Of a DNA stretch of 64,000 nucleotides, positions 8,301-63,806 are shown one piece after another. The stretch lies in contig JAAOMT010000591.1 in the NCBI GenBank assembly GCA_016748015.1, positions 410,335 to 474,334 of the forward strand, given 5' to 3'. The position numbers and the translations under genes were made by a program. The notes under the pieces are model-generated. The model searched no databases, had not been told where the DNA came from, and saw only the letters and a program-made list of their open reading frames with translations. Position 1 is the stretch's first letter; every line of letters begins with the position of its first letter. The DNA comes from Geosiphon pyriformis uo1. Taxonomy: Eukaryota > Fungi > Glomeromycota.

Positions 8301-9879
8301 TAGAAAATTAAAAAACAGTATTCTAAAAAAAATATGCTTTATTTATCTTAATTTGTTAATAAAAGCTATTATATTTTCTAGAACTTTTAAATCAACTAAA
8401 AAAAATTAATTATAGCCAAATAATTAACATAATAATAAAACAAAATAAAAATATTAGAAAAAAAATAGTTTAATTAAAAAAACAACTCTTTAAAAAAATA
8501 AAAAGTTATTTTATCTTATATTTAAAAAGAAACAATATATACTAAACATCATAAAAATACAATTAAAGATTTAATGACAACCAATAAAATTAATTAATAT
8601 AACAAAAATATAAAATGAAAATATATGTTTGCTATTATTATAAATATGTAAAATATTTAATTAGCCAATTTTAAGCCAGATAATATTATTAATTATTATT
8701 ATAAAAGATAATAGTTTTACAACTATTTTTTCTTTTAAGTTAAAAAAATAAAACTATTTTTAATAGAGCAGTATTAGACAAAAAATATTTAATTACTGCT
8801 ATATATATAGAAATAATAGTAAACAATATCTTAATTAAATTTATTTTAAATAATAAATATACTAAAAGCATTATAATATTTTAATTAATAAACCAATTAA
8901 GTTTTATAGTTAATTATATCACAATATCTTAAATTATAATAGTTAATAAAAGTATTAAACTATTTTATAATAAAATTAATTTGTTTTTTTTTAAATTAAA
9001 TAATATAATAATAATTACAAAAGTATTAATAATAAATATTATACAATATTAAATATTAATAAGCAATAATTAATTGATAAAAGCAAATATTATTTTAAAT
9101 TAAACTATTCAAAAAAATTTTATTAATTATAATAATTATTATACAGCTATTTGTAACTGTTTTCAAAAATTTAACAATATTTAAAAATTTACTTTTAAAT
9201 ACAAAAAAACTCAGTATTGTTAGCAATTAAAACTTATTAATTCTTATAAATTAATAATAATAAAACAAAACTATTAATTATATTAACTTAAATAAGCAAA
9301 AAAAAATTGAATAGAGCTAAATAACCAATTAAAAAAATAATTAACAATCCAGACCAAAGCTAGAATACTCAATATACTATAAAAACGTTTATTTATAATA
9401 ATATATAATACATTAAATAAAAATTCCAGAAGTTTAATTTACTATTATTATAACTATTACATTAAAAAAAAATTATTTAAAAAAACATGATAAATAGAAT
9501 TAACAAAAATAAAAACAATATTTTACTTAAATTAACATTTATCTTTACAAAAATTGGCTTATTTTATGCTAAAATCAATATTATAAAAAGTATTAATACA
9601 AAAAAAACCTTAAAATTTAAAATTTAACAATACTAAAATTAATTAATAAGTTAATAAAACTTATTTAATAAACTTAAGTTAAAAAATTTGTACCCTATAC
9701 TAACTTAGAACAAAAAATTAATATTTGATACTTTGATAATAAGCACTTAAAAATAAGATTTAAAAGAACTTATTTAACTAATATTAAATTTAATTTATAA
9801 TATCCAAAAAATTAATTCATAATATTATTATTTAGAAGTATTATTAAAATTAATTTAAAAATAATAATTGAAATTTTAC

Positions 9880-10150
9880 CAAAAATAATAGTTTAAATAA
9901 TATTATAATCAAGCTTTGCAAAAAAAAGAAATAAATGTTTAAAGAAAAATAATTAACTTTAAATATACAAAAAATTTAATGGTTTTATTACAAAACAATT
10001 TAGAAAAACTATATATTATTAAACCTAAAAAAAAAATTACACAAACAATTTTTTTACTATTAATAAAAATTACAAAATTCATATTAATAAAAAATCAAAA
10101 AAAATAATATAAATAATAATAAAAACTTTATAGTTTTGGATCAATAAAAA
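9880..10150 (+). pseudogene. Fossil dUTPase of an eroded gypsy pol
   Basis: aagctttgcaaaaaaaagaaataaatg...ttattacaaaacaatttagaaaaactatatattatt...aaattacacaaacaattttt...agttttggatcaa aligns with dUTPase DNA at ~46780-47025 (LQNDSEK..EKIAQAIFLPL..FGST). Confidence 0.7.
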
Positions 10151-10222
10151 AAAAATTAAAACAAATTTAATTAAAACAACAAAAAAAATATTAATTAATT
10201 AAAATTAAACAGCTTATTATGC

Positions 10223-13200: not shown

Positions 13201-13460
13201 TTATTATGTATCTTTTTTTGTTATTTCTGAGTATTATTAATATTGTTAGCTGTTATTCTATAATTGTTTTCTAATGTTTCTATTAGTTGGTATGTTTTTT
13301 GATATAAAGTAGCTTCAAAATTCTCTTTAGTAATTAATTTTGTTGAAAAAGAAGATATTTTTTATTCAATAAGTAGAATGGCTTATCTTTTATAAACTAG
13401 TTCAAATAGTATAAACTGATTAGTATTTTGCTTTAGTATTTAATATACAAATAATACAGA
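10223..13460 (-). mobile_element. Eroded 3' half of a family-A-like gypsy element: integrase C-terminus (~13460-12900), ORF3 (~12800-11133, split by a solo LTR), 3' LTR (11142-10223)
   Basis: Decayed KKQWSGKFDPKWD coding DNA near 13100. ORF3 motifs EITINNKKI, YWFFKIGGQL and LYTVFKYC. Eroded PPT followed by TATTACC (=TGTTACC) at 11142; LTR end tattacag at 10223. Confidence 0.7.
11683..12660 (+). mobile_element. Solo LTR of family B with 4-bp TSD CCAT
   Basis: Starts TGTTACCAG and ends cctctgataata (eroded cctccggtaaca). Homologous along its length to the LTR at 61871-62823. CCAT on both sides (11679-11682, 12661-12664). Confidence 0.9.
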
Positions 13461-13479
13461 AGGTATGAATAAAAAAACA

Positions 13480-34351: not shown

Positions 34352-34559
34352 AGCGAAAACGGCAAAATTGTAAGGAGAATGGGGTAAATAAACTTTTTTT
34401 TGAATCAGGTACAGTGATTGATCCGGATGACGTTTGACAAATAATTTTATGCTTCTATGACGCAAAATTCGCTAATGTTTACAAAAAGAATTGTTAGGTT
34501 TTTGAGTTCCAATCACGAATGTAGAATTTTGACATGATATTTGTCTTAAAGTCAAATCA

Positions 34560-36887
34560 TATTAAATTTTGCAAGATTTTTTTATTTTTTCTGCAATTAT
34601 CATAATTACTGCGATTAATTAATAATTCTTATTATATTATTTTTGTTTTCGATTTTTAATAATATAATTGTTTAAAAAATAATAATAAATTATACTTAAT
34701 AATAAAAAACATTTTGACAAAAAAGCCAAATATTTAAATATATAATAATAATTATTATTTTTTAAGTTAATAAACCAGTAATAAAAATATTAAAAAAATA
34801 TATTATGTAATTTAACAATTTATAATAATTTAAATAATGCAATATTAAAATAGTTTTTATTTAAAAATTATGTATTTATATTAAAAAATAGTTGTAAACA
34901 AAATATAAAAAATTTATTAACTGTTTTATTAACAATATTTTTATTAAATTATTATTTAGCAAAAATAAAAAACATATTTATTAATTAAAAATTAAAAAAC
35001 TTTGTTTTTTTTTGTATTTTTATAATTTCATTTTAAATAAAAAGTAAAAAAGAAACAATTTTTTTCTATTGTTTTTAATAGTTTTAATGCTTTAAAAAAT
35101 TTACAAATCTTTTTTTAAACCAGTTTTTTTAAGTTAAAAAACATTATTTGGCTTTAAATAAGAGATTTTTTTTTATTTAAGTTTTTTTTAATTAACTAAT
35201 TAATTTTTATTATCACAAAAAATTCTAAAAAGCACAAAAAAAAAGTTGTCTTTTTTATAAAAAATCAGTAGTAAATCTATTTTTTTTTAATAATTCTTTT
35301 TATTATTGTTTAAAATAATTATAAAAAACTTTTTTCTTGAAAGCACTATTTTTAATCTCTCTAAACTATTTGAAAAAATAGTTTTTTGGTGTTTTTTAAA
35401 ATTATATTTTTAATTTAAAATCTATTTTTATTTATTTATTAGTATTTTTACTAGTTTTATTACAATGGTACTAATTATAATACTTGATTTTAATTTAATT
35501 ATAAAAAACAATTTTTATTCTATTTAATATATTAACTTTTAATTAATATTTGCTAATTTTAAAACAAAACATGTTATGTTTTTATATATAATTTTAACTA
35601 ATTAATTTATTAAAATACTTAATTTTAAAAATTAAACTAATAAAATAAAAACTATTAAGTTAAATTAGCTTATATTAAAACTATATTTTAATTTTTACAT
35701 AAAATTGAATATTAAAAACAATATTAAATTTTTAATATAAAATTTGCTTTTTAGGTTTTTTAAATGCTATTACCAAAATTAAATTTGTTAAAAAAAAATT
35801 ATAAAATTATAAAATTATAAAATCTTTTATAATATTTGTTTTTGCTTTAATTATTATAATTTTATATAATTTAAGTTTTTAAAGCTATTAAAATTATTTT
35901 TGCTTATTAATTAATATTAATATTTAAAAATAATATAAAATATAATATAAAATATATTATTATCTATTATAATATGTTTAAGATTAAATTAATTGTTTTT
36001 TTTTTGGTTATACAGTTTTTAAAATCAATAAATTGGTTTTTTAAATTAAAAATTAGACTTGTTTATTTTTTGTTTTTTTAATAATTGTTATTAAAATATG
36101 TTATTGTTATTTTTAAATCCAAAAAACTTTAAATAATATTATTCTAAAAACTGATATGTTATAAAAAAATTATGATTAATAAAAACTTTTGAATATTAAT
36201 ATTGTTATAAATATTTAATTTCTGATTATAAATTTATTTTTTTGGTTTTTTAAAATTTTATTTAAGCAATTTATTAATTTAAAATTTTAATTTTTTTTGG
36301 TTTTATATTCAATAATATTTAATAATATAATAATTATAAAAATTAAATTTTTAAAATTTTAATTACTTAAGTTTTTTAATTAATTAAATTAGTTGTTTAA
36401 TTTACAAATATATTAATCAATTTAATTATATTTTTATTAATAATAATAAATTTAATTTTATAATTAAGACTTAAATTAATTTTAAAAAAAAGCAAATTGG
36501 TAATATTATTAGATTAATAACCAATATATATTAACTTTACAAAAAAATATATAAAAATAATATTAATTTTAATTAATTTAATAATAATAATAATAATAAT
36601 AATAATATAATAATATATAATTTTTTTTGTAAGTAAAAATCTTTTGATAAATTAATAATATTTTAAAATTTTTATTAAAAATAACAAAAAAATAAGCTGT
36701 TTGCAATTAAATAAGTTTATTAAAAACATTAATTATCATATTAACAAAATAAAAATATAGTATTTGTTTTTTATGTCTAATTTAAAATAATTTAAATTGG
36801 TTTAAATAATTAATTATATATTGTTTTTAATATAATTTATATATAATATTAGTATTATATAAATTAATTAATAATTAAACAATATAT
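34560..36887. mobile_element. AT-eroded TE fossil, family not determined
   Basis: Composition only; includes an (AAT)n tract near 36580. Confidence 0.6.
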
Positions 36888-37588
36888 TGTTATGGTTAAA
36901 ACTTATATTTCTTATTAATTATCACATGTATTAGCCACTGATATTATATAAATTAGCCACTCTATTTTTAGTAAGTGATCATTGACCTGATCATTGACCT
37001 GATTATTGACCTAATTATTGACCTAGTCATTGATCTGATCATTGACTACTTTTAATAGCTATATAAGCGATGAATTTCTTAACTGTAAAAAAGCATGAAG
37101 AAATAAAGAAATCAAGAAAATCAAATAAATAAAAATAACAACTTTTATCTCAATTCTTCTCTTATCGCTAATTTCCCTTTCCCTACTTTTAAGTATCTGA
37201 ACATCTTAAAAGATAAAAGATTATTTGTTGGTTATTCTTTACCCTTTTCCTGAAATGTGTAATTGCAACATTTGAAGATTATTGAATAAAATGTAACTAA
37301 AAAGCACATCTGATACTTAATATTGAATTCTAAGAGTGCTGATGTGAAGCATAGAATTATACCAAGTGTGATCATTTGTTGACAGTACAGACTATTTCTC
37401 TACCTTCAGATTCCCCAGTTATCTTTGAAAAGTATAGTGACTGAAATATTTTATGAAACTAATCTTGCACATTGAATTCATACTTATTCAATTCGCTCTT
37501 TAAAGTTGAATTCCCTTTGATTCCTTTCATCACTCTACAATCCTGTTCTCTCTTGCTATCTGTTAGCTTGTTACTCCAATCCGTAACA
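36888..37588 (+). mobile_element. 5' LTR of gypsy family C
   Basis: TGTTATGG...CCGTAACA termini, followed by a PBS. Confidence 0.85.
36976..37047 (+). repeat. ~6 x 12-bp tandem repeat (TGATCATTGACC) in the U3 of LTR C
   Basis: Seen directly, just upstream of a TATA-like ctatataag. Confidence 0.85.
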
Positions 37589-37594
37589 TAAAAG

Positions 37595-37611
37595 TGGTGC
37601 TTTCTGTGAGG
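37595..37611 (+). other. Primer-binding site of family C (TGGTGCTTTCTGTGAGG)
   Basis: TGG-initiated, 6 nt after the LTR end; complementary to a tRNA 3' end. Confidence 0.8.
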
Positions 37612-37639
37612 TTGTCAAAATCCACTTTGTTTTTTATTG

Positions 37640-40600
37640 TATGGGTGATTATTTATACCTGCCACAACAATCAGAAAAACACTTTAAAGCACACAACAAA
37701 AATGATCTAGACTTTATTGAACTTAATCTTTTGCCTTCCTACTTGATTTGCTTTCCCATTAAAAAACAATCCAGCAGATAATTCCAAGACTTTTAGAACT
37801 GGTTCCTAAATGAGCATTCAGCTGAAACCTACACAACTTATACAACCTATTACTTTGACCAAGCTTATTTTGAAAATGACTTTGAAGAAAAAAACAACAG
37901 TATCAATCAGCTCTTATATTCTACAATCTTTGAACAACAGCCCCCTGATCTTGAATATCTGAATCATCAAATCCACATTTGGATTGCTGCTCATTAATCA
38001 ACAAAAACTTCTCTTGAAACAGAAGAAAAAAGCTATCAAATCACTTCTGTTTTTGATTTCTTTTCAAGTGAATCAGAACACTCTACACAAACAATTACAC
38101 CTAAACCAATGGCTCAAGACCCTCTGCAACAAAACATTTGGATTGCCCTCCAAGGTATACAGACTGCTTTAGGGTAAAGAAACAACACCCTATTACTATT
38201 ATTCAGAGGTAATACCCAAGATCCAATTGAATGGTTGAATGATTTTAAAAGAGCTGCCACAGCAAACTAATATGATAATGAATACAAGTTCCAAATCGTT
38301 GGTGGCTACCTCCAAGGCTCTTCTGCTACTTGGTTCTCACAAGAAACCAATGCCAATGCTCAGCAAAGAATTATTAGATGGGCACTGGCAAATGCTGGAG
38401 AAGACAACACCTCTTTTACTACCCAGTTTAAAACTAGAACTCCCATCTTAATCTCAAAATGGCATATGAAATTAGAAAGAAGAACTCAAGGCCCTGGTAA
38501 GGTTGTAACAGAATATGCCAAAACAATAAGAAAACTCATTAAATGAGTAGATTCTGGAAGAAATTGAACAGAAGAGCAGAAAATACATTTCTTTACAAAA
38601 GAACTGAGAACTGATCTACCATATGCTCTTTGGCCTCTCCTGGCCTTGAAAGATAATTCCACAATAGACATGGTCATTGAACTTGCTCAGAAAATAGAAA
38701 ATAATCAAAGGATGCACCTAAAATTCACACTTCCAGTTTTTGCTCCTGTTTCTGTTATGGCTCCTGCTCCCCAAATGGCTGCTACTTCTTTTGCTGTCCA
38801 AACTCAAGACCCAAATGAACAGTTAATAGATAGACTTACTGTTAATCTTGCCTGGCTATTAGAACCATTGGCCCAAGCAATTAGAGAGAATCAACAACCT
38901 TAAAGACCCAGATTTGAACCCCATTTCAGTTAGCCCCAACAACCACCATATCAAAGACAGCAAAATCATGGCCCACCTGTGTGCTATTATTGTGGACTAA
39001 CTGGACACTTCTTAAGAGACTGCAACAATCCTCTATTGCTCCTTCCAGTTTCTAAAAACAATGACAATTAAAACAACAGAACCATTAACAATAATGTTTC
39101 CAACCAAAGAACCAATCATGCCAACATCAATTACTTTGAAGAGGATCTCCTAGTTGAAGCCACTGTTTATCAGCCTTTAAACTGGTAGGTGCACCTCCAA
39201 AGAGTGAAAGTGCAAGCCAACCAGAAGAAAACCCCTTTTATGCTTTTAATCTAACTGATAATAATCATGATATGGATGAACTAGCAATCAACACCTCTGA
39301 ACCAACCAGAAAAAAGAAGAAAGCCAAGATTGATTTTGTTTTGGACCTAAACAAAGCATCCAAATCATCTGCTAATAACAATGAGCCACCAAAAGCTAAG
39401 GTTTTTAAAAATTCACCAAAGTTAGAACCCCCAGAAATTGTACAAAAATCTGGACCCTATTTTGTTGTTAAAGATCTCATGGAAACCCCAGCACACATTA
39501 TATTTGGCCAACTGATGGCCCATCCACAGTTCAGAAAAGACCTTCACAAATTATTAATACCAAAAAAGAAGACACCAAAGACCAATAAACACCTATGTCA
39601 AGCTGGATTCACTGACAACAGTAATGTTACCTCTTTTATTTGTAAAGCTCAAGTGGCTGGTTATTTCATTAATCTGATCCTGGACAGTAGATCATCTGTT
39701 AGTGTCATTGCCAAACACTTTTTAGAAACAATTGGCAGAAAGATTGATGAACCATTCACAAGACCAATGACCAATGTACATGGTAACAAAAAGAAAAGCC
39801 TGGGCATAGCCAAAGCTATTCCTGTCTACATTAATGGTATCAGCATTAAAACTAATATGGAAGTATCTGAAGTAAAAGAGTACACCATAATTGTTGGCAA
39901 TAAGTGGCTTAAGAAAGCTAAAGTGCTACTTGACTATGAGCTTTGTGAACTAACCATTAGATGTGATGAAAAGCCCATTGTGGTTAAGTGCCATCATTGG
40001 ACAACCCTTCCAGTACCCAAGCAAAACCAGGAAAAAAAACAATCAGATGAATCAGATGATGATGAGAGTGATGATAAAGATCAAAAAGAAACTGCTGAAC
40101 TTGCCTATACCATTTTCACCAGCAATGGCAAGCCACTGGACAATGTTAAAGCTGACAAAAAAGAAATTATGATAAATGGCAAGCTGATCTGCTGGCCCTA
40201 TTATGACATCTTCAGAAGAACCTTTGACAGAAAACCTGACAAGAAAAAAAAATACAGTTATTAATAACATGGTCTTTGTGCATGGTGCTGGTGTAATAAA
40301 CCTTTGTATTCACCAAATAATAAATACAAATCCTGCCTGATTTATTACAAAGATTGGAAACCAATTAGCTTGATACCTCGAGAAGAACTTAAAGAAGTAC
40401 AAAAGTTCTTTGAAAATAAACCACCTGAAATCCAATCATTAGTTGTAGAACAAAGAAAATCTTCCCTTAAAGAAAAAAAAATGGTGTTACAGATGATTAT
40501 TTGGGGTTTCAAATCAAATAACAAATCCATAACTTGGTGCTCAATATCTTGACAATGCTGGTAATATTGGTACATTGGTTGTATTTGAAAATTTTAGAGT

Positions 40601-41710
40601 TGAGTCCTTTGTATAATGGACAAAGATTCAATAATAATAGTTGGTTGGTGAGTTGTGTTCCCAATTTCTGTCTTCAGCTTGGTGGCCAGTTTATTCTGGC
40701 AGTTGTGCCCTTCTGATAAGCTATCCATTAATATATATATAATTTTACTCTTATTTCTGGGTTTTTTACCAGGCTATCTGTGACATCAATTACTTAGTGC
40801 TTTAATTCTTAATTAGTTAATATACAACAGTAAAAATCAAAGAAATAAAGAAATAAATAAAAATAAAGAAATAAGCCAAGGCAATATGCACGTTAGTATC
40901 TCGTCAATAGCCATGATTAAGAGCTATTGTTCTAGTGTGGTTAAGTATCAATTACTATTAACATAANNNNNNNNNNNNNNNNNNNNCCCAATTTCTGTCT
41001 TCAGCTTGGTGGCCAGTTTATTCTGGCAGTTGTGCCCTTCTGATAAGCTATCCATTAATATATATATAATTTTACTCTTATTTCTGGGTTTTTTACCAGG
41101 CTATCTGTGACATCAATTACTTAGTGCTTTAATTCTTAATTAGTTAATATACAACAGTAAAAATCAAAGAAATAAAGAAATAAATAAAAATAAAGAAATA
41201 AGCCAAGGCAATATGCACGTTAGTATCTCGTCAATAGCCATGATTAAGAGCTATTGTTCTAGTGTGGTTAAGTATCAATTACTATTAACATAAAGTGTTG
41301 ATAATGGAGAGTAGATTTGGATAGTAAATGATTTATTTATTTAATATTTGTAAATAAAAGATTTCTAAGTAAAAGATTCTTATCTTTCTACTTCTAATGC
41401 TATCACTATATATACATAATTAAAGTTCTATAAGATTGCTCACATTCCCAAGTAATGTGCTATGATTTTTTGAGCAATGTGTTATGATTTCTATTATTGC
41501 TCTACATTGCTGAGCAATGTGCTCACGTGCTACATACTATTCACTCATTGGTCTACTATTCTCCCTATATTTGTTTTTTTTTTTATAAGTAACAGTGGAC
41601 ATTAAAAATCTGTTGGCTAGAAATAACTCAGTCATCTCAAAAGAAGATAATACTCTTGGACGAACTCATGTGATACAACATACTATTACCACCAAAGAAA
41701 CTTGCCTTAT
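37640..41710 (+). pseudogene. Family C gag-protease-Cys-rich segment-RT N-terminus, interrupted at 40485 and 41711; no dUTPase
   Basis: Zinc knuckle CYYCGLTGHFLRDC (~38982), protease LDSRSSVSVI, GLCAWCWCNKP. Resumes at 41595 as VDIKNLLARN..LGRTHVIQHTI (RT start). Confidence 0.85.
40485..41594 (-). mobile_element. Solo LTR of a family-A variant (A'), TSD ATGG/GTGG; includes an artefactual duplication at the gap
   Basis: TGTTACAG at 40485 and agtaaca at 41594. R/U5 part homologous to 42050-42578. Confidence 0.85.
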
Positions 41711-42640: not shown

Positions 42641-45600
42641 GTGGCAGAATCAAAAACTATAGGAGCAAACCATTTAGGATTCGCAAAATCCTTATTTCAA
42701 CACTATTGTCAATACTTGGGATTAAACCACAATCATATATCCGCCAAATCAGCCTTCAATTTCTACGTCAATGAAAAGATTTCTTCTTTATTAGGAACAC
42801 CAGTGAATACTAAATCAGCAAGAAAAACTTTCTATAAGGAATTAATTCAAAACACCAACTTACCAACAAACCATAATTTTGCATCCATCATCATTGAGAT
42901 CAACAAAGAAATTGAACATCACACTCAACAAAAATATCCAATTACATACGCTAATAAAGACAAGGAAAAATTACAAACACCAGCAGTAACACCCAGAAAA
43001 ATACAGCCACCTGCTTGGAAGAAAAACAGAGTTGAATCCCCAAGCAACCCATCCTACCACTATACACCTGGAAATGCCATTAACATATCATCAACAGACG
43101 TGTTCACATCAATTATGACATCAGCATTTGGACGATTCCCATTCCAAAGTAAACAAAAGAAAACAAAATTGTTAGAACTATATGGTAAGTACTTTGAGAG
43201 ATTTAATTCGCAATCATCAACCCCATCAGGACTTCGATCACCACTGCCTCCACCAGATTTTAGAATCTCTGATCTATGGGAAACAGCGGAATCAGAAAAA
43301 GAGGAAGAAGAATCAGAGGATCAAAAATTCACTTACCAACACCTAATCACTGAAAACCTGGAAGTTGAAACCCCGAACCTTCAAACTCAGCAACAGTTAG
43401 AAAATCCGGAAATCGAAACTCCGAATATTCGAACACCACCAAATCAAAGAAATCAAGAACCCAAATTAATTAATCAGTAAAACTTATCTCCAGTAATTGT
43501 CATCAATCAACTGCTGATTAATCCCATAGCCGAATCCATACAGCAGCCACTTCAGCTACTATCCTAACAGCCAGGACAACAACAACTGCTTCAACAGCCA
43601 CCACAACCACCTAACTTAGATTCAATGGCCTATGTACCAATCACAAAACTCGACAACTTTACTGGTGAAGAAGATAACACTCAAATATGGCTGAACGATG
43701 TAGAAAAAGCCATTGCAGCCAATGAATAGAATGACACTCAAGCAATGCAAGCCATTCTCTACTTTCTCAAGAATACCACCAATTCATGGTATTAGAGCCT
43801 GGTTAATAAACCACAAAATTTCAATGCCTTCAAAGTGGAATTTCTAAGATACTTCAGCAACAATAACAGCATTAATCGCCTAGTTAATGCATTCACCACC
43901 ATAAAACAAGGAGAAACTGAAGCAGTCACCACTTACCTGGGATGTTTCCATCAAAACCTATGCCAAATTCAAGCAATTGATGCCAATTATTTCACAGCAC
44001 CACAGATACTCAATCAGTTTATCCGTGGCTTGCACAGCAGCATCTTGCAACATGTATGGCCATTGCATCCAGGTACCCTTCAAGACGCAGTTACACATGC
44101 CAGAGATTTCGGATCTGCCGAGTCAAAGGCTAACCATGCCCAAGCCATTAATCTAGTAATGAATGGATCATCTGAATTGGATTCCAAATTGGAGAAGTTC
44201 AGTGAATCAATTAATAAGAGATTGGAAGGATACTTAGCTGACAATTACGCCATTTATCAGCCTCCACAATAATGCAATAATCAAGGAAACTTTAATTGTG
44301 CCCAAAATCAACCACGCCCATCTTCATCAACCAATCAACAGTGGCAACAGGAAACGTGTATCTGCCACTATTGTGGTAAACAAGGACATATCCAAATTGA
44401 CTGTTGCCAGCATCTAAATAACCAATGATCAGGAAATCAATATCGAAACCCCAATTGCCAGTTCCAAACTCCGAATCATTATCCAAATCAGAGTCAAGAC
44501 CAATATTGAAATAATTATCTGCCCATGACGCAGCAACCAATCTATCACCCACCAGTATATTAACCTCCGATTTATTAGCCGCAGCCACAAGTAATATATC
44601 AACCGCCGCCCCAAATCATCTATCAACTTTAACCAATTCAAACACCAACCCAGAACCCAGCTCAATTGACATTAGGCAATCCTCGATCCAGAGTCACTCA
44701 AAACTGGAGATTGGCGATGATTGTTCACCAACCGATCCCCAATTTACTAAACTTACCATTAGGATTACACACCCAAAATTTGGATACCAGTCGCGTCCAA
44801 AACCCAAATTCTCAACATTATTTAAGTCTCCTAGTTACCCCAGAAAACGCCACATCCAACAACACAGGTTCCAATCAGCACATACCTACCAACACCATTC
44901 TACCAGCAACTATCTCTAGCGACAAATCCCTAGCCACCATCTTTCCTTTCAAACTCGAAGAAAACACCCCAATACTATTATTCAGTAGAGCCACTCTCGA
45001 AGAGAAACCCATAACAGCAATGTACATAGATGTCAGAGTTGATGGTCATCTTATCAAATTCATCCTAGATAGTGGATCAGCTGGCAGCATAATCACTAGA
45101 CAACTCATGGATCAATTAGGTCGCTGAGTTGATCAAGCTGCCAGCACCAGAATCATCACAGCCGATGGAGCGACCAAAACTCCAATCGGCGAAATTGATG
45201 ATTTCTCTTTTGAAGTCAATAGCATTGTGACTCCCATTAAAGTTCTAGTAATGGAAGCCACTTAATACCAAGCTCTCGTTGGTAATGACTGGCTATCCAA
45301 AGCCAATACAACATTAGACTGGAACACCCAGGAACTCCAGCTAATGTATCAGGGCCAACACATATATGTCCCAGCCATGTGTGGCCATTTCAAAACTCCT
45401 CCAAGAAAGAAACTATTGATCGAGCTAGAGAAGGAGAAAGAAAAGCCTACCTGAGAAGCCTACCAAGTATCATGAGCTGATGAAAAACACAACAAACTGT
45501 CGCTAATACTCTTCTGGGATGACAACAACAAGAAAAAAGAGAAACAAAAGGAAGAACTTACCTGAGAAACCAATGACCTGACATGGACTGACAATGACAA

Positions 45601-48600
45601 GAGCGAACTGACTTCAAATTGGAAATGGGAAGAAGACAAAGAAAATAAAGGGAAGGGAAAAAAAAAAGAGACCACTCAAATCACCACCACTTATAACACC
45701 TACACTACACCACAATGATCTATCTATCGTCAACCCAAACTTATATACATTGATTGTGGCAAAAAATTGTCGTCAATGAGTGCATGCTGTGAGGATAATG
45801 AGAAATATTCAATGGCAACTAGGTTCTATTGCCACCCATGTGTTCTTGAACGCTTTAGAAGACCAAAACGAGTAGGGAAATGGGACAATCAGCCATGCTT
45901 AGCTTGTGGAAAGACTCTCTTAGACAAAGGAATGTGGCATGACATTCCTGGACATAGAAGAATATGCAACATATCATGTCAATACACAATTCTAATAAGT
46001 GACTGGGTAAGGAAAGGAATCCCAATAGAAGCAGTCTAGAGAAGAGCCGTACAGCGACTGGACAGTTGCCCACATGATGATGACAAAATTTGGCAAATGG
46101 CACTTGCAAAAATCAAAGGGGTGATGTCAGAAGAGATAAAAACGATCAAAGACAACACCCCAGAATCTTTAGAGCTTAACTGGGATACAGAACCCATCAT
46201 AAACCTCCTGGATCTAGAACAATTCTACGAACACTATCAAAAATTAGCACCCACAAGGGAAGAACAAGAACAATGGTTAGAACAGTTGAATACTTGACTA
46301 TATCAACACTGCCTAATTTCCTGTGACTTCCAGTATTGCAATGAGTGTAACCTCATTTACAATCCACCACCACGTATGATCTACACGATCCCAGAAAAAG
46401 AAGAACCAATCAGCAGCTGCGCATCAAAATTAGAATTGCCGATCAATCGCGATTCAAACTCCGACAATGACGATGACAACAACGGTTCAAGCTCCATTCA
46501 AAATGGCAATGACAATGACAATGATTTTAACTCAAATACAAACTCCGATTTAAACTATGAACAATATATTGTATTACCAGATCTCTCCAAGGAACAAGAG
46601 TTGAAATGATATAGTGACAATGGGGAAGGTATTATGCCAGAACGTGCACATGATACTGATATAGGGTTTGATCTAAGATATTCAGGAAAAAATGCCATCA
46701 AATTGGAACCACATTCATGCACCTGCATTGATCTGAAAATAGCACTAGAAATTCCGGCAACAATCATGGTTCAATTAGCATCTAGGAATAATTTAGCAAA
46801 AAGAGGGATTAATATAAAAGGAGGAATAATTGATGTGGGATATGTAGGAAATATTATTGCTATGCTACAAAATGACTCAGAAAAGGCCTATGTAATAGAA
46901 CTCAATGAAAAGATAGCACAGGCAATATTCCTGCCTCTGGTTAGAATAGTACAGTTAGTATCAATAGAAAAGAGGGAGAAATTAGGAATAACAGCAAGAG
47001 GAATACAGAGATTCGGATCCACAGGTAGAATAGATGTACCAATTAACATGACAGAGGAAAAAATTGTTGACCAAGGAGAAATTATCTCAACTGGTCAAGC
47101 TATTTCTATTCCACTATATAGCCAGTACATGTTAGCAATAGAAAGAAAGGAAAAGGAGCAAGAACAGATGTTTGAAGTGGAAGCAACCCTTTGTGAATTG
47201 GGAGAGATTGGGTTGATCAATCTCCACATACCAGCCAAAAGCTATAGCAGCATAAAAATTCCCATCTACAATAATACTGGCAATGTCATCAGCATACCAG
47301 AAAGAACCACCATTGGATATTTAACCACAGAAATAGAAGACCAACCACCAAATCCCATTCCAGACTTTCCACAACTTTGTGGATATGTTGACATCACATC
47401 ACAAACAATCTATGGACAAGACAAATGTTATTTGCTCCAACCAGAACAATTGGAACAAATGAACATGGGAAACTTAGATCCACTCCAATGTATGCAGCTC
47501 AAGATGTTACTCAACAATTTCAATGACATTTTTGCCAGCAAAAATGAATTTGGCCGAACTGACATCATCCAGCATCAGATCAAGACTGGAGATGCAATGC
47601 CAATCAAACAAAGAGCATACAGAGTGCCGCCAGCCAGCCACAAGATTATTCATCAAGAGATAAACAGAATGCTTGACAACGGGCTAATTCAACTATCAAT
47701 GAGTCTATGGTCGTCACCAGTGGTACTCGTCCATAAGAAAAATGGAAAAATCCAGTTTTGTGTAGACTACAGAAAACTCAATAGTGTAACTCGTGGAGAC
47801 AGTTATCCAACTTCACAAATACAGGAATTATTCGATGCTTTCGGTGGGAACAAATGGTTCTCCACATTAGATTTGGACAGTGGTTACTGGCAAGTAGCCA
47901 TGAATCCAGCTGACAAAGAGAAGACGGCATTTACTACTAGAGAAGAGAATTTCGAATTTGAAGTAATACCATTCGGCTTAACCAATGCCCCAGCGACTTT
48001 CCAACAGCTAATGGAAATTGTTTATATGGGTTTATTGTGGAAATCAGTAGTTGTATACTTGGACAACACCAATGTATTCTTAAAGACATTTGATGATCAT
48101 CTTCATCATCTTCAACAAGTGTTTGAAAGACTAAGAAGAGCAGGACTGAAGCTAAATGCAACAAAGTGCTTCTTTGGCAAGACGAAACTCAAATTCTTGG
48201 GACACATAGTCAGCAAAGACAGTATCAAAATGGATCCAGAGAAAATAGAGATAGTAAAGAACTTTCCAGTACTGACCAATATAACAGAACTGAAATCATT
48301 CTTGGAATTTGCCAGCTACTATCATTGTTTTATCAAGAACTTTTCTAAGATAGCGCAGCCACTCAATCAACTACAAAACAAAAATGTGAAATATGAATGG
48401 ACAGAAAGTCAACAAGAAGCTTTTGATATTCTGAGGAAAAAGCTCATTCAAGCTCCAGTGCTGATCTATCCAGATTACAGCAAACCATTCATCATCACCA
48501 CTGATGCATCCGGCCAAGCATTGGGAGCAGTATTATCTCAGAGAGAACTGGACAGCAGAGAACATCCAATAGCATATGCCAGCAGAGGTTTAACACCAGC

Positions 48601-50804
48601 CAAAAAGAACTATGGAACACCGGAACAAGAACACTTGGCAATATACTGGGCCATCATAAAATAGAAAAAATACTTGAGCCAGAAGTTTGAAGTATACACA
48701 GATCACAAGGAATTAACATCATTCCAAAAACAAAAATTTGGAGATGGAAGACAGTCAAGATAGAAAATGGCATTTGCACCATACAATTATATTATACATT
48801 ACAAAAAGAGAAAAAACAATGGAAATGCTGATGGTTTATCGCGAATAAAACAAATCTAAGAATATTTCAACCCAAAAATATAATAAAACCAGAACAATAC
48901 CAACAGAAAAATACAACAAAAGATGAACATACAAAAATATCAACAATTACAACATTATCTAAATACTCAACAGTTCAAGAAGAATTTATCTCATACGGAA
49001 CGAAGGAGTATCAAACAACAATCAAAATATTTTATCACTCACCAAAATATACTTTATCAGAAAAATAGAAGAGATTCAGATCAACCAACCAGAGTAATTA
49101 CAGAGCCAGAAAAAGAGACAATATTATTCAACATGCACTCAAATCCAACAGCAGGACATTTTCACAAAGAAGCAACCATAGAAAGAACTAGAAAAAGATA
49201 CTATTGGCCATCAATGTACCCAGATATCATTCAATATGTTCAAAATTGTGATGCTTGTCAGTGAAAAGGAGGAACAAGACCCAGTGAACCATTAAGACCA
49301 ATCAAAGTGGAACAACCATTTGACCATATGGAAATTGATTTAGTTGGACCATTAACAATTACCAGCAGAGGAAACAGATACATAGCAGTAGCTATGAACT
49401 ATTTCACTAAATGACCAGAGGCAAAAGCAATTCAAAGAGTGGATGCAGAATCCATTGCCGAATTCATTCATCAGGAGTTAATTTGTTGACATGGATGTCC
49501 AAAAGAATTATTATCAGACCAAGAAACTTATTTTGTGAACAGAACATTAACTGAATTGAGCCAAAGATTTGGAATCAAAAGACCATTATTATCATCATAC
49601 CATCCACAAACCAATGGATTGGTAGAAAGATTTAACAGAATGTTGTGTGAAGCAATAGCCAAGCTCAGCCAAGAAAACCAGAACGATTGGGATTTGTTTA
49701 TACCTTCAGTACTATTTGTTTATTGGACAACGAAACAAGATACTACACAAGCAACACCATTTGAATTAGTATACGGGAGAATAGCAACGTTACCAGTAGA
49801 AAGAGAAATTAATACATATCCAGCTGAACCAATAACAGAGGAAAATTTTCAAGAAACATTGCTGAGAAGAACATATGACTTAATAGAAACATTGGAAAAC
49901 AAATGAAAAAGAGCAGCTGATAATATCCAAAAGTCACAAGAAACACAGAAAGAAAGACATGATAGTCAACTACCAGACAAACCAGTTGAATTCAAGATCG
50001 GAGACAAAGTATTACTACATTATACCAAAGTGAAAAAACAATGGAGTGGAAAATTTGACCCCAAATGGGATAGACCATTTCACATAGAAGAAATTCTAGG
50101 AAATGGAGCTTACAAATTAAGATTGGATANNNNNNNNNNNNNNNNNNNNNNNNNNNNNNNNNNNNNNNNNNNNNNNNNNNNNNNNNNNNNNNNNNNNNNN
50201 NNNNNNNNNNNNNNNNNNNNNNNNNNNNNNNNNNNNNNNNNNNNNNNNNNNNNNNNNNNNNNNNNNNNNNNNNNGGAGAATAGCAACATTACCAGGAGAG
50301 AGAGAAATTAATACATATCCAGCTGAACCAATAACAGAGGAAAATTTTCAAGAAACATTGCTGAGAAGAACATATGACTTAATAGAAACATTGGAAAACA
50401 AATGAAAAAGAGCAGCTGATAATATCCAAAAGTCACAAGAAACACAGAAAGAAAGACATGATAGTCAACTACCAGACAAACCAGTTGAATTCAAGATCGG
50501 AGACAAAGTATTACTACATTATACCAAAGTGAAAAAACAATGGAGTGGAAAATTTGACCCCAAATGGGATAGACCATTTCACATAGAAGAAATTCTAGGA
50601 AATGGAGCTTACAAATTAAGATTGGATAACAAAATTTTAACCAAAGCAGCACATGGAGATCGACTGAAACCATATCACAACATCATACTACCATCTACCA
50701 GTAATATTTCACAATTAAGAGTACAGAGAATACTAGTCCAACTAAATAAGATTTCACAAGATCTGGAACCAATTATTATTATCGACAACAACACGTTAAA
50801 TTGA
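42641..50804 (+). pseudogene. Family A gypsy polyprotein: N-terminal extension-gag-CCHC-protease-Cys-rich-dUTPase-RT-RNaseH-integrase, broken by nonsense codons
   Basis: All ORF fragments from 42641 to 50030 share one frame. CHYCGKQGHIQIDC, LDSGSAGSII, RT (FCVDYRKLN, LDLDSGYWQV, PFGLTNAPATFQ, YLDN), RNaseH TTDAS, integrase GHF/YYWP/CDAC and YHPQTNGLVERFN. Confidence 0.95.
46634..47030 (+). CDS. dut: dUTPase domain within family A pol
   Basis: All five motifs in order: GFDL, ASRNNL (normally SRSSL), GGIIDVGYVG, KIAQAI, RGIQRFGSTG. Confidence 0.93.
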
Positions 50805-53629: not shown

Positions 53630-56600
53630 TGTTACCGGAGGTTTTTGGTCTCTTTTCTTAAATGTTGGTAATGTTAATTTGCTGTGAATTCACGTTTTCA
53701 GGAAGTAGTTGAACCTCCAATAACTGAATTTATCTTCAAATTATCTTCTATAATTTGAACTGCTGGGCTTATAAGTGGAATGGCCAATTCCTTGCCAGTT
53801 ACTTTATGTAGTTACGTTGTAGTAAACGTCAACTCTTTCCCAGGAATTGCTCGTCTGGAAGCTCACTAAAAATGTGTAGTTACTTTGCTGTGAAAGTCAA
53901 CTCTTCTACAGGAATCTCGTCTGTAGGCTATCCTAATAATTGTAATAAAAAAAATAAAAAAAAATAAAAAAAATGTAAAAGAAATAGAATTTTGTCAAGA
54001 GAAACGTTTTCTATCCAGGCCTGGAGTCACTAACAGTTTACTGAAATTGGTAGCTAATCAATTTCGAANNNNNNNNNNNNNNNNNNNNNNNNNNNNNNNN
54101 NNNNNNNNNNNNNNNNNNNNNNNNNNNNNNNNNNNNNNNNNNNNNNNNNNNNNNNNNNNNNNNNNNNNNNNNNNNNNNNNNNNNNNNNNNNNNNNNNNNN
54201 NNNNNNNNNNNNNNNNNNNNNNNNNNNNNNNNNNNNNNNNNNNNNNNNNNNNNNNNNNNNNNNNNNNNNNNNNNNNNNNNNNNNNNNNNNNNNNNNNNNN
54301 NNNNNNNNNNNNNNNNNNNNNNNNNNNNNNNNNNNNNNNNNNNNNNNNNNNNNNNNNNNNNNNNNNNNNNNNNNNNNNNNNNNNNNNNNNNNNNNNNNNN
54401 NNNNNNNNNNNNNNNNNNNNNNNNNNNNNNNNNNNNNNNNNNNNNNNNNNNNNNNNNNNNNNNNNNNNNNNNNNNNNNNNNNNNNNNNNNNNNNNNNNNN
54501 NNNNNNNNNNNNNNNNNNNNNNNNNNNNNNNNNNNNNNNNNNNNNNNNNNNNNNNNNNNNNNNNNNNNNNNNNNNNNNNNNNNNNNNNNNNNNNNNNNNN
54601 NNNNNNNNNNNNNNNNNNNNNNNNNNNNNNNNNNNNNNNNNNNNNNNNNNNNNNNNNNNNNNNNNNNNNNNNNNNNNNNNNNNNNNNNNNNNNNNNNNNN
54701 NNNNNNNNNNNNNNNNNNNNNNNNNNNNNNNNNNNNNNNNNNNNNNNNNNNNNNNNNNNNNNNNNNNNNNNNNNNNNNNNNNNNNNNNNNNNNNNNNNNN
54801 NNNNNNNNNNNNTTCAAGGCTAACATTAATTTTTGGGATATTTGTTGAATATTTCGGGGAATAATCATGATAAAATTGACTAATTATGAAAAGAGAAAAT
54901 AAAGAAAATTATTTTTGGATATGGGGTTTTTATTTGTTTTTGGGTTTGAGTGTTTTGTAATTATTTACTATTTTTGTCTTTGTGTTTTTAGTAGAGAATT
55001 ATTGTAAAATTTAAGTGTTCAAGTTTGGTTGTTGTTCTATTATAATTATTGGTTCTAAATTTCAGGAAATATCTTCAGGATTAATTAAAGGAGAATGTAT
55101 ACCAATTTGTGGAATTAATGGTTCAGGATTGTTTCTGGAATGATAGTATTTCAGTCTGTCTCCATGTGCAACTTTTGCTAATATTTTGTTATCAAGTCTT
55201 AACTTATATGATCCATTGTCTAGAATTTCATGAATATAAAATAGTCCATCCCATTTGTTTTCAAATTTCCCACTCCATTGTTTTTCAGCCTTAGTTCTGT
55301 GTAAGAGAACTTTATTTCCAACTTTAAATTCGTTGGTAATAGATGGTAATTTGTTGTCATATCTTTCTTTTTGTTAAGCTTGGGAATGTTCAATATAAGC
55401 TGCTGCTATTTTTCTTTTTCCTTCCAGTGTACTAAGAAGAGTGTAGGCTCTTCTTTGGAATGTCTCTTGAAAGTTTTTTTCATTGATTGGTTGCACTGGG
55501 TATATTTCCACTGTGAAATTAATTGGTAATGTTGCTGTTTTTCCATAAGTAAGATCAAATGGTGTGTGTTTCGTAGTATCTTGTTTTAGTGTTCTGTATG
55601 CTAGTAACACTGATGGAATAAAGATATCTCATTCCTGTTCAAAGTTTGTTGAGACTTTGGCTAAAGATTCACACAATGTTCTGTTAAAATGTTTTACAAG
55701 TCCATTTGTTTGAGGGTGATAAGGTAATGATAGAGGTCTTTTGACATTGAACTGTTTACAAATTTCTTGTATCAAGTTGTTCACAAAATGTGTTTCTTGA
55801 TCAGATAAGAGTTCAATTGGACATCCATGTCTACAGATAATGTCTTCATAGATGAATTTTGCTACTGATTTTGCATCTGCTTTTTGGATGGCTCTAGCTT
55901 CAGGCCATTTGGTAAGATAATCCACTGCAACTGCAATATAATAATTTCCTTGGGTTGTGATAGGTAATGGTCTGATTAAATCAATTCCAACTCTGTCAAA
56001 AGGTTGTCCAACTTTGATTGGATTTAAAGGTTCTGTGGGGTGAGTTCCTTCTCTTCTTTGGCAGTTATCACAAGATTCTACATATTGTCGAATGTTTTTT
56101 TACATGTAAGGCCAAAAATAATGTTCAAGGGTTCTTTGAATTGTTCCTTCTTTTCCCAAGTGTGCTGAAGACAGATCTGTGTGCATGTTGTATAAAATTG
56201 TTTCTTTTTCATTCTCTTGTACTAATCTGAATGGCTGGTTTGGTTTTCTGTGATTTTTATAATAAATTTTGTTCTGGTGTATAAAATATTGTTTTGATTG
56301 GTGTTGTAAGTGGTGTTTTTTACTGGGAGACCAGTTTTCTGGCATGATAAGGGTTTCCAAATAATTTTTAAGATTGCTGTAGTTTCTGGATCTATTTTTG
56401 TTTGGTTATTTTGTTGGTAAGTTGGTAAGTTGTGGTGGAATTGTTGTTGGTACTAATCTTGTCTCATTCTTGAGAGGCTATCAACATTGGTATGTAGTTT
56501 TCCTGGTTTGTGGTGTACAATATATCTGTAGTCTACTAGGAAGTCATTCCATCAAGACTGTTTGGCACTTTGTTCAGTTTTCTTTTTATTGAGCCATTTG

Positions 56601-59600
56601 AAGCCAATGTTGTCCATTATTATGTCAAATTCTTTTCCATTTTTCAGATATTGTTGAAAATGTTTAAGAGCCCAAATAACTGCAGCAGCTTCTAATTCAG
56701 TTGAGCCATATTTGAGTTCTGTTGGCTTGAGTGTTCTGCTGGCATAGGCAATAACTTGTTCTTGGCCATTTTCATTTAATTGTGATAAGATAGCACCAAA
56801 TGCTATGTGTGAGGCATCAGTGGCTAATTGGAATCGTTTGTTGAAGTCTGGATAAGCAAGAACTGGGGCTGTTGTCAATTTTGTTTTGAGAATTTCAAAA
56901 GCTTTNNNNNNNNNNNNNNNNNNNNATAACTGCAGCAGCTTCTAATTCAGTTGAGCCATATTTGAGTTCTGTTGGCTTGAGTGTTCTGCTGGCATAGGCA
57001 ATAACTTGTTCTTGGCCATTTTCATTTAATTGTGATAAGATAGCACCAAATGCTATGTGTGAGGCATCAGTGGCTAATTGGAATCGTTTGTTGAAGTCTG
57101 GATAAGCAAGAACTGGGGCTGTTGTCAATTTTGTTTTGAGAATTTCAAAAGCTTTTTGTTGTTTTTCAGTCCATTTGTATGGTACATTTTTGTTGGTAAG
57201 ATAATTGAGTGGTTTGGCAATTTCTGAGAATCCTTTTATAAATTTTCAATAGTAAGAGGCTAATCCCACAAATCCTCTTAGTTCTGTAGTATTTCTGGGA
57301 GTTTGAAAGTTTTTGACAGCATTGATTGTTTCTGGATTTGGTTTGATTCCATCTTTACTAACTATGTGTCCAAGAAAGATTAAACTTGTTTTTCCAAAGT
57401 GACATTTCTCAATATTTAACTTTAATTCTGCTTTCCATAATCGTTAAAAAACTTCTTGCAGGTAAATGAAATAGGCTTCAAAGCTTGGTGAGTATACATC
57501 AGTATCATCAAGATAAACAACTACTGATTGCCACAAGAGCCCTTCATAGACAACATCCATAAGTTGCTGAAATGTTGCTGGTGCATTGCAGAGTCCAAAA
57601 GGCATAACATTAAACTCATAATTTCTTCCTTAAGTGGTGAATGCTGTTTTGGGTCCATTTCGACTTGCCAGTATCCACTTTCCAGGTCTAAAGTTGAAAA
57701 GAACTTGGCTTTTCCTAGAGCATCTAGCATGTCATCAATTCTTGGAAGAAGGTAGGCATCTCCAATTGTAACACTATTCAGTTGTCTATAATCAACACAG
57801 AATCTAATTTTTCCGTTTTTCTTTTTAACCAAAACTATTGATGAGGCCCAAGGACTTCTTGATGGTTGAATCAATCCGTTATTGAGCATTCTTTGGACTT
57901 CTTTTCTGATAAATTGGTGGCTGGCAGGTGGCACTTGATAAGCTTGTTGATGTTTTGGTAGAGCATCTCCTGTATGGATCTAATGTTGAACAATGTCTGT
58001 TTTTCCTAAGTTATTGTTGTCTTTTGCAAATATATCTGCAAATTCAGCTATCAATTGTTTTAATTGTCTTTGTTGTTGAGGTTCTAAGGGACCCATATTG
58101 ATTCGAGAGAGTTTTTCTTCCAACAAGTGGTAGTTTTCAGTAGTGGGAATGATATTTGGATTTGGGAGTAGAGTGTGCTTTACAATTTCGATGAAATTAG
58201 AGACAATCTGAGGGTTTTCATCTTGAAAGATATTGCTGTGTATGATTTTAATTTTTAATTTGTTTAATAAAACAATAGGATAATTATTGGGGTTGTAGAA
58301 TGTAACTCGAAATTTTTTCATTCTTTTGGGAATATAAACGTTTGGAATTGATATTTCATGTTTCAAACAGATTTGTTCATTGAATTCAAAGATTTGTTGG
58401 GTAGTGGTGGGTTTTGAGCAAGTGTAAATTTCGTGATGTTTTCTAAAAGGTGAAATGGTAATTGGCTGAGGAAGTTGAAGAATCTGGTGAGATTCATTTT
58501 GTGTATTAAGAACTATGTTTACTGAAACTGTAAATCGTCCAGTTGAACCAAAACTTTGAATTCCTCTTTCACTCTTTCCCAATTGTTCTCTGCTGTTTAC
58601 TGATTGTAAACTCGAAATGTTGATTAAGGGTAAGTAAATTGCTTGAGCAATTTTTTCAGCATGTTCAATTTTGAATGGTTTGTCTGTCTCATTCTGTAAC
58701 ATGATGGTAATGTCTCCAGTGTATCCTGCATCTATAACTCCTCTTCTAATATTGATTCTTTTGCTTGCCAATGATGATCTGGAGGCAATTTGAATCATTG
58801 CTCCTGCTGGAATTTCAAGAGCAATTTTAAGATTGATTTTTGTCAAAAACTTTGGNNNNNNNNNNNNNNNNNNNNNNNNNNNNNNNNNNNNNNNNNNNNN
58901 NNNNNNNNNNNNNNNNNNNNNNNNNNNNNNNNNNNNNNNNNNNNNNNNNNNNNNNNNNNNNNNNNNNNNNNNNNNNNNNNNNNNNNNNNNNNNNNNNNNN
59001 NNNNNNNNNNNNNNNNNNNNNNNNNNNNNNNNNNNNNNNNNNNNNNNNNNNNNNNNNNNNNNNNNNNNNNNNNNNNNNNNNNNNNNNNNNNNNNNNNNNN
59101 NNNNNNNNNNNNNNNNNNNNNNNNNNNNNNNNNNNNNNNNNNNNNNNNNNNNNNNNNNNNNNNNNNNNNNNNNNNNNNNNNNNNNNNNNNNNNNNNNNNN
59201 NNNNNNNNNNNNNNNNNNNNNNNNNNNNNNNNNNNNNNNNNNNNNNNNNNNNNNNNNNNNNNNNNNNNNNNNNNNNNNNNNNNNNNNNNNNNNNNNNNNN
59301 NNNNNNNNNNNNNNNNNNNNNNNNNNNNNNNNNNNNNNNNNNNNNNNNNNNNNNNNNNNNNNNNNNNNNNNNNNNNNNNNNNNNNNNNNNNNNNNNNNNN
59401 NNNNNNNNNNNNNNNNNNNNNNNNNNNNNNNNNNNNNNNNNNNNNNNNNNNNNNNNNNNNNNNNNNNNNNNNNNNNNNNNNNNNNNNNNNNNNNNNNNNN
59501 NNNNNNNNNNNNNNNNNNNNNNNNNNNNNNNNNNNNNNNNNNNNNNNNNNNNNNNNNNNNNNNNNNNNNNNNNNNNNNNNNNNNNNNNNNNNNNNNNNNN

Positions 59601-62823: not shown

Positions 62824-63806
62824 TAATCTCCTCCTCAAGACTGAGCTCCATCAAAGTCCAAGCACTATCTGTAATATTTAGATAGTGATCTAAAATGATT
62901 GAAGTAATCTGGTCTGAAAATTGTTGAAATTTCAGTTCTGTGAGTTTGCCAATGTATTGAACTTTCATTGATTGCAGTATTGGATTTTGTAGAACATTTT
63001 CACAAGTATTAAACAAATCATAGAGTCTAAAAGCTGCTCTAAGTTTATAGCGAGTGTTTGTTGGTCCAGCTGCTGTTTTGAATTCATTGTAGATTTGTTT
63101 TTGTATAACTTCAGGAGTAAGATTTGTTGCTTCAAGTTCCAGTTTTCGTTCATAAAGTGTTTTTCCAATTTGAAAGTATNNNNNNNNNNNNNNNNNNNNT
63201 AATCTGGTCTGAAAATTGTTGAAATTTCAGTTCTGTGAGTTTGCCAATGTATTGAACTTTCATTGATTGCAGTATTGGATTTTGTAGAACATTTTCACAA
63301 GTATTAAACAAATCATAGAGTCTAAAAGCTGCTCTAAGTTTATAGCGAGTGTTTGTTGGTCCAGCTGCTGTTTTGAATTCATTGTAGATTTGTTTTTGTA
63401 TAACTTCAGGAGTAAGATTTGTTGCTTCAAGTTCCAGTTTTCGTTCATAAAGTGTTTTTCCAATTTGAAAGTATCTATAGATAGAAGTGTGTTCATTGTT
63501 CTGTTCATTAAGAAGTAGTAGTAGTTTTTGTTGCATTGTAGCATTTGGTGGAATGTCAATTGGGGCAATTAGCAGATTTTCTTCTAGTGCCTGCTTCAAA
63601 AGTCTTGGTAATTTATTCTCAAAGTGCCTTCTTGTTTTTCTTCTATAGGGGTGATAGTTCTGTAAATAATTTGCTACTGGGGCTGTGGTTTTTTTCTGAA
63701 TGTATTTAATTTGACTTCTATTAATCGTTATAGATAAGTCAGGGAGTGTTTTCAAGGCTAACATTAATTTTTGGGATATTTGTTGAATATTTCGGGGAAT
63801 AATCAT
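62804..63806 (-). CDS. Family B accessory ORF3 (~235 aa after removing the gap duplication), function unknown, stop codon inside the LTR
   Basis: ATG-initiated open frame MIIPRNIQQ...YRYFQIGKTL...RLYDLFNTC...LSLEEEIMLPVEF*, downstream of the integrase end (EPIIII). Confidence 0.8.
62827..62836 (-). other. Polypurine tract GAGGAGGAGA, 3 nt before the LTR
   Basis: ...cttGAGGAGGAGAtta|TGTTACCAG on the minus strand. Confidence 0.8.

Follow-up and report, generated by a model that had tools for sequence, protein, structure and literature searches.

A dUTPase lodged in Pol between the protease (PR) and the reverse transcriptase (RT) has been described in PosPlaTy3-5 of the fungus Postia placenta, and the same account refers to earlier reports of the domain in Phanerochaete elements and in Tmt1 of Tuber melanosporum (PMC2864245). 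The same interval holds a dUTPase in three bdelloid rotifer lineages, Juno, Vesta and TelKA, in a study that used HHpred and calls the domain rare in retrotransposons (PMC5408684), and a 'dUTPase-like' domain in the planarian element Burro (PMC6431247). For the PNMA-ancestor metavirus, a 'dUTPase' or 'dUTPase-like' domain has been reported (PMC11011659 and its preprint). Lentiviral and betaretroviral dUTPases are homotrimeric five-motif enzymes in a retroelement polyprotein and in this resemble the first of the two domains described below, and the herpesvirus monomeric dUTPase carries its motifs in rearranged order (PMC4531489). In the herpesvirus dUTPase-related proteins HCMV UL82/pp71 and MHV68 ORF10, the fold was kept while the activity was lost and the protein was reused for protein contacts (PMC10868460).

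The locus studied here lies in a window of 64,000 nucleotides from Geosiphon pyriformis, the window being the whole stretch of DNA that was analysed, and comprises a dUTPase and a second segment behind it in the Pol of a Ty3/Gypsy element (element A; Table 1). An earlier note on this DNA had stated that a previous cataloguing of the architecture for these families would speak against its observation. This applies in part: no paper was found on the Geosiphon families, but the order PR-dUTPase-RT had been recorded in Gypsy elements from other fungi, from rotifers and from planarians, and the captured dUTPase of element A is real but ordinary. The new part is the second segment (47048-47350). We consider it probable that the Pol of element A holds a true dUTPase followed by an old, non-enzymatic module of dUTPase fold, which is homologous to a spacer in other Gypsy Pols and is not a decayed copy of its neighbor.

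In the accessible part of the fungal account, no second, motif-less domain of dUTPase fold is mentioned, unlike in element A, and the PosPlaTy3 elements were described in a survey devoted to elements with a chromodomain (PMC2864245), whereas no chromodomain was found behind the family B integrase in the window. The rotifer, planarian and PNMA-ancestor accounts, in their available parts, do not state whether the motifs are intact, whereas the motifs of element A were scored; the 'dUTPase' of these reports may be the same pseudo-domain seen piecemeal. A tandem pseudo-domain, present in element A, is not described for the lentiviral and betaretroviral enzymes in the consulted part of PMC4531489. 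The herpesvirus dUTPase-related structures 8qdo and 7byf were among the top structural matches of our models of the second segment and of a spacer (P0340), but the herpesvirus proteins are large, stand-alone and built of several domains (PMC10868460), whereas the second segment is one 100-aa domain inside Pol. Our search of the literature, with subscription titles (on Phanerochaete, Tuber and the Geosiphon genome) largely outside it, gave no account of a motif-less dUTPase-fold domain general to Gypsy Pol, nor of a tandem of true and pseudo-domain.

Table 1. Positions of the elements discussed, numbered along the window, with the evidence for each feature.
Feature	Position	Strand	Evidence
Retropepsin protease, element A; two in-frame stops	45005..45400	+	Pfam Asp_protease_2 / gag-asp_proteas on stop-free 5' piece
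Cys-rich linker, ~400 aa, from protease to dUTPase; several stops	45401..46609	+	Translation
Trimeric-type dUTPase domain, motifs 1-5 in order	46628..47026	+	PF00692 E 1e-16; motif census of 120 copies
Pseudo-dUTPase domain (second segment), dUTPase beta-fold predicted, catalytic motifs absent	47048..47350	+	AF2 model; Foldseek and VIA matches; motif counts
RT (YLDN, dead) and RNase H, element A	47570..48661	+	Pfam RVT_1, RT_RNaseH; translation
Integrase, element A, with stops and an N gap cutting through	48923..50129	+	Pfam Integrase_H2C2; translation, tblastn
Family B dUTPase, motifs 2-5, N-terminus inside N gap	58526..58855	-	tblastn 58% identity, E 3e-38; PF00692 E 2e-14
Pseudo-dUTPase domain of family B with the residues behind it	58163..58525	-	hhalign against the element A second-segment profile, E 4e-5; alignment
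AT-eroded fossil dUTPase	9780..10150	+	tblastn E 5e-12 over 9916-10104; motif traces in translation
Gag-protease fragment of family C, from a lineage without dUTPase; breaks off shortly before RT	38100..40460	+	Best matches P0317/P0335

Element A and its true dUTPase

Element A is a decayed Ty3/Gypsy element lying inside a nest of decayed elements of this type. Pfam, translation and tblastn gave the order protease, Cys-rich linker, dUTPase, second segment, RT, RNase H and integrase; this contains the PR-RT-RH-IN order of Ty3/Gypsy elements (Metaviridae), and the RT of element A clusters among Ty3/Gypsy-type Pols in the RT tree. The element was not assigned to the chromoviruses: the C-terminus of the family B integrase had only a weak SH3_Tf2-1 match, and element A is gapped there. 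Self-alignment of the nested and gapped region revealed LTR-like repeats, among which no matching 3' repeat for element A was found. The dUTPase lies in the frame of the protease, RT and RNase H. Nine stops interrupt this frame between the start of the protease and the dUTPase, and the RT motif reads YLDN; this copy of the element is therefore dead.

The Cys-rich linker contains several CxxC pairs, and a similar region spans residues about 325-560 of P0262, an unmutated metagenomic element with the same layout as the Geosiphon families. It is possibly a set of zinc fingers; Pfam (searched with P0262) gave no match for it and the ESM Atlas no usable one, and neither a fold nor a family was obtained. 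In element A, RNase H is followed by stops (window 48837-48925, + strand), after which an ATG stands at 48923; in element B, the passage from RNase H to integrase involves a change of frame (about 56300-56400, - strand). The integrase of both elements may be a separate ORF, and decay could equally account for the stops and the frame change.

The claim of a five-motif dUTPase, in frame from protease to RT in family A, was borne out: the domain matched PF00692 with 61 bits against a cut-off of 22, and motifs 1-5 are all recognizable. In the window copy, motif 2 reads RNN and not RSS, with the Ser lost, and Arg replaces the first Gly of motif 5. Across 120 copies of family A, the commonest residues are canonical at all five motifs; all 13 strict motif positions are intact in six copies, not including that of the window, and most of the changes are of the type expected from G-to-A or C-to-T. 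Judged by these motifs, the parent of element A most likely had an active dUTPase. The best 120 of 602 protein matches to the dUTPase region of element A all come from Geosiphon pyriformis, as do 53 of 53 matches to the second segment.

The earlier note had also listed a dUTPase in family B and in a fossil, and none in family C. tblastn recovered the first two (Table 1). A fossil protease lies upstream of the fossil dUTPase (8792-9166), and no second segment was detected downstream of it by tblastn. The fragment at 38100-40460, which we took to be family C of the note, supports the third statement indirectly. An inverted repeat truncates this copy, whose end falls about 27 aa short of the RT start of P0317/P0335; the copy leaves no room for a dUTPase, since it aligns to these dUTPase-less proteins up to that point.

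In a tree of 43 dUTPases, the 16 Gypsy enzymes gathered here grouped together (80/50) and were sister (97/93) to those of two retroviral Pols (L006:3001-3390 and L007:3001-3381), which have the layout RT-RH-dUT-IN, with the dUTPase in a position other than the PR-RT interval of element A. Identity of these two to the window and P0262 enzymes is 32-38%. The 12 dUTPases that come from tandem-layout families all fell into one clade (97/95). Compared with PDB sequences, the P0262 dUTPase scored 70 bits with FIV, about 55 with EIAV, vaccinia and chlorella virus, 51 with yeast and about 40 with human. The tree names no donor, as cellular eukaryote enzymes are absent from its 43 rows. The lentiviral link of the active enzyme, weakly sampled as it is, bears on the source of retroviral dUTPases. 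A bacterial, endosymbiont or phage donor was considered and rejected, no close one being found (best phage match about 42%, plasmid matches ≤37% among those listed, one GTDB match 30%). Within the phage, plasmid, GTDB and PDB collections covered, these comparisons give no sign that the enzyme was captured recently, be it from the host or from a phage or bacterium.

Predicted fold of the second segment

The peptides IKIPIYNNTGNVISIPERTTIGYL (A) and RVTFYNPNNYPIVL (B), which the earlier note had placed after the dUTPases and read as a second, decayed dUTPase fold, were found there and are mutually homologous (hhalign E 4e-5). A search of 1.84 billion representatives for relatives of the segment gave 119 matches, which belong to four families of Geosiphon (A, B and a further two) and to the metagenomic P0262; nine of ten proteins looked up from this search belong to Geosiphon. 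The DNA context of P0262 was sought in metagenome contigs, and none was found. The segment is in frame in all four Geosiphon families and in P0262. Searched against Pfam and PDB sequences, it matched no Pfam family and gave nothing useful.

Structure prediction, which the note had proposed for this segment, was more informative. AlphaFold2 applied to the segment alone (58 rows, no templates) gave a model of modest confidence (pLDDT 61, pTM 0.48). When the model was compared with 48,161 chains by VIA, the top 22 rows were all dUTPases, dCTP deaminases or herpesvirus dUTPase-related proteins, with Z 6.3-9.4, where values under 8 can reflect a merely common arrangement; the best was 1dun, with rmsd 2.8 over 92 aa, and the next, unrelated row had Z 5.1. 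All PDB rows listed by Foldseek were dUTPases (best E 2e-4), and viral models agreed. The PDB entry 1tul (baculovirus TLP20) came close below the dUTPase superfamily for this model (Z 5.0) and was the first row below it for the P0340 spacer model (Z 5.9). Prediction of a trimer from three copies of the segment scored 0.00, which says nothing for or against a trimer.

Motifs 1, 3, 4 and 5 were found in none of the 58 rows, and a triplet resembling motif 2 in three. Since it lacks motif 3, which binds uracil, and the arm of motif 5, the segment is predicted to be catalytically inactive. Identity between families is 21-48% for the segment versus 39-62% for the dUTPase, so the former is evolving faster than the enzyme. 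Of the original reading, the dUTPase fold stood, as a prediction, whereas the decayed copy was not supported, in view of the in-frame retention and the absence of a detectable sequence link to the neighboring domain.

Kinship with the PR-RT spacer of Gypsy Pols

Profiles of the second segment and of the adjacent dUTPase aligned with E 0.15-0.19 in hhalign, and 33/100 and 20/100 shuffles did as well. The comparison was extended to the 120 best of 6,741 RT relatives of P0262, a sample that consists of the top matches of one query and is not a census; Pfam recognizes a dUTPase in only four of these Pols. The second segment then served as the seed of an HMM, which was iterated over the 200 aa preceding RT in the 119 other Pols and retrieved 7, 60, 67, 68 and 68 of them in successive rounds, with zero matches to reversed sequences in each. 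One of the 68 was a true dUTPase (P0392) and was removed, leaving 67 spacer rows, all without a Pfam dUTPase. The profile of these 67 rows matched that of the second segment with E 6e-7, and none of 100 shuffles did as well; the match is partly circular, as the spacers had been picked with a profile seeded by the segment. A profile match between spacers and the Geosiphon dUTPase (E 3e-4) was discarded as an artefact of the P0392 row, after whose removal it fell to E 0.08, with 11/100 shuffles as good.

An HMM of the 67 spacers only, run over 34 proteins, found true dUTPases at E 1e-6 and 5e-6 and the second segment at E 8e-6, the best reversed sequence having E 1.8; the window's own segment was found weakly (E 0.06 in six frames, E 0.007). 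With the HMM of the second segment, 18/67 spacers exceeded 5 bits versus 1/18 true dUTPases. Motifs 1, 3 and 5 are absent from all 67 spacer rows, an Asn is kept in 66 of them, and the hydrophobic pattern is conserved. A Glu column is common to the second segment (52/58 rows) and the spacers (57/67), and both stand at an equal distance of 60-85 aa from RT. The spacer of P0340, a protein with no Pfam dUTPase, provided an independent check: it has a predicted fold of pLDDT 87, for which the top 22 VIA rows are of the dUTPase superfamily (Z 6.8-10.0). A domain tree was built from 10 second segments, 18 hand-picked spacers and 18 true dUTPases (94 columns; four dUTPase rows with no core found were dropped). 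In this tree the 28 motif-less domains split from the 18 true dUTPases at 100/99, with the second segments among the spacers; the branch is very long, and shared motif loss may therefore contribute to the split.

These comparisons show homology, at the level of profiles, between the second segment and a spacer lying between PR and RT in 67 of the 119 other Pols, and the segment is unlikely to have arisen by decay of a copy of its neighbor. The best reading is that it belongs to a pseudo-dUTPase domain that is widespread in Gypsy elements and has gone unannotated. The idea that the segment is peculiar to the families of the window found no support, as it groups with the spacer of elements that have no true dUTPase.

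A different origin would be a tandem duplication of the adjacent dUTPase in the fungal lineage, followed by decay, the likeness to the spacers being a convergence of independently inactivated dUTPases. The position of the segment directly behind the dUTPase and the single clade of the 12 tandem-type enzymes fit such an event, and motif loss could draw unrelated dead domains together in a tree. Nevertheless, we regard a duplication as unlikely: similarity to the neighbor was undetectable, as opposed to the match with the spacers, the Glu column and the distance to RT are common to segment and spacers, and P0315 and P0313, which belong to the RT clade of the window element, have the pseudo-domain and no dUTPase match.

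The RT tree (FastTree, 121 rows) places the homologous spacer in a wide context. One clade of 68 rows has it in 65 (support 97); the members of this clade that carry a name are animals (Cordylochernes, Acropora, Ephydatia and frogs). The window element falls together with Rhizophagus and Entrophospora Pols in a clade of 36 rows (support 83), where both domains were detected in two, the pseudo-domain alone in two, the enzyme alone in three and neither in 29; neither was detected in the other 17 rows. The pseudo-domain thus appears to be dispensable in many lineages, being undetected in 29 of the 36 rows and in three more that have the enzyme only. Its absence from most rows of the fungal-type clade and the low identity between families would suit a functionless relic, retained because deletion inside a polyprotein is slow. 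Such a relic would hardly be kept in nearly every row of a deep clade, with the Asn, the hydrophobic pattern and a confident predicted fold, and we consider this explanation distinctly improbable. Retention in the deep clade with a conserved core argues that the pseudo-domain has a job.

Trimer-mimicking herpesvirus dUTPases share their motifs between domains, and the occurrence of the EBV dUTPase and herpesvirus dUTPase-related proteins among the top structural matches, together with a tandem layout that is stable across five families, could suggest that the two domains of element A likewise form one enzyme or that the second tunes the first, but this is very improbable, given that the first domain holds all five motifs in normal order and the second adds none, that P0359, P0390, P0392 and L001 have the dUTPase and no detected second segment, and that 67 Pols have the spacer and no enzyme.

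In the ESM Atlas, the second segment adjoins unnamed eukaryotic clusters (0.95-0.96), in which Rotifera, Nematoda and Oomycota are commonest; its best look-alike is an unnamed cluster with Rotifera commonest. These neighbors are a lead that the domain is distributed more widely still. In L001 (430-860), P0359 and P0390, the true dUTPase is followed by a different, acidic, Cys/His-containing segment in the place of the pseudo-domain.

Possible history, roles and erosion

Under the reading of a true dUTPase followed by an old spacer-like module, an ancestral Gypsy element would have captured a dUTPase long ago, keeping the fold while the activity disappeared. A fungal sub-lineage would later have gained a second, active dUTPase just upstream of the pseudo-domain, and either domain would have been lost in sister lineages. 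In an active parent, the true dUTPase would likely have been made within Pol, entered the particle, trimerized and lowered dUTP where reverse transcription occurs, leaving less uracil in the cDNA. This role is modeled on retroviral dUTPases in general and, in part, on the account of them in PMC4531489.

For the pseudo-domain, by analogy with UL82 and ORF10 (PMC10868460), we favor a role in the structure or protein contacts of the Pol precursor, aiding assembly or processing next to the N-terminus of RT, although we find this role about evenly balanced between true and false. Alternatively, it could bind host or element factors, tune the neighboring enzyme or have no function.

The wider picture would be that of a large Ty3/Gypsy branch, in animals and early-diverging fungi, with an unrecognized, conserved and non-catalytic dUTPase fold between PR and RT, a counterpart of the herpesvirus dUTPase-related proteins. 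Capture of dUTPases would then be ancient and common, the Geosiphon lineage would have captured the enzyme twice, and the active enzyme may share its origin with lentiviral dUTPases; for this picture as a whole, the case for and the case against weigh about the same. With the pseudo-domain, a blank stretch of 100 aa in many Gypsy polyproteins would acquire both a fold and an origin, and the notion that few retrotransposons carry a dUTPase would have to be revised. It also suggests that some published 'dUTPase' calls made with remote-homology tools are dead domains. As a test object, the Geosiphon elements offer a live and a dead copy of one fold in a single element family, with sister families that have either, both or neither.

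The repeats of the window are strongly eroded by C-to-T and G-to-A changes, with GC down to 9% (4000-16000, 34000-38000 and the transposon nest at 38000-64000). Transitions make up 47 of the 48 differences between two family B copies (22 A/G and 25 C/T), and the observed/expected ratio of CpG is 0.02-0.32 in the elements versus 0.95 in a gene-rich stretch. This pattern points to methylation-linked change in chromosomal DNA, from which a dUTPase would not have protected the copies that were killed. A role of the dUTPase as a defense against C-to-T erosion was rejected on the same evidence of transitions and CpG depletion. At 40660-41293, 49776-50628, 56676-57155 and 62905-63474, short N gaps are bordered by duplications that are exact or nearly so, and these are likely artefacts of the assembly.
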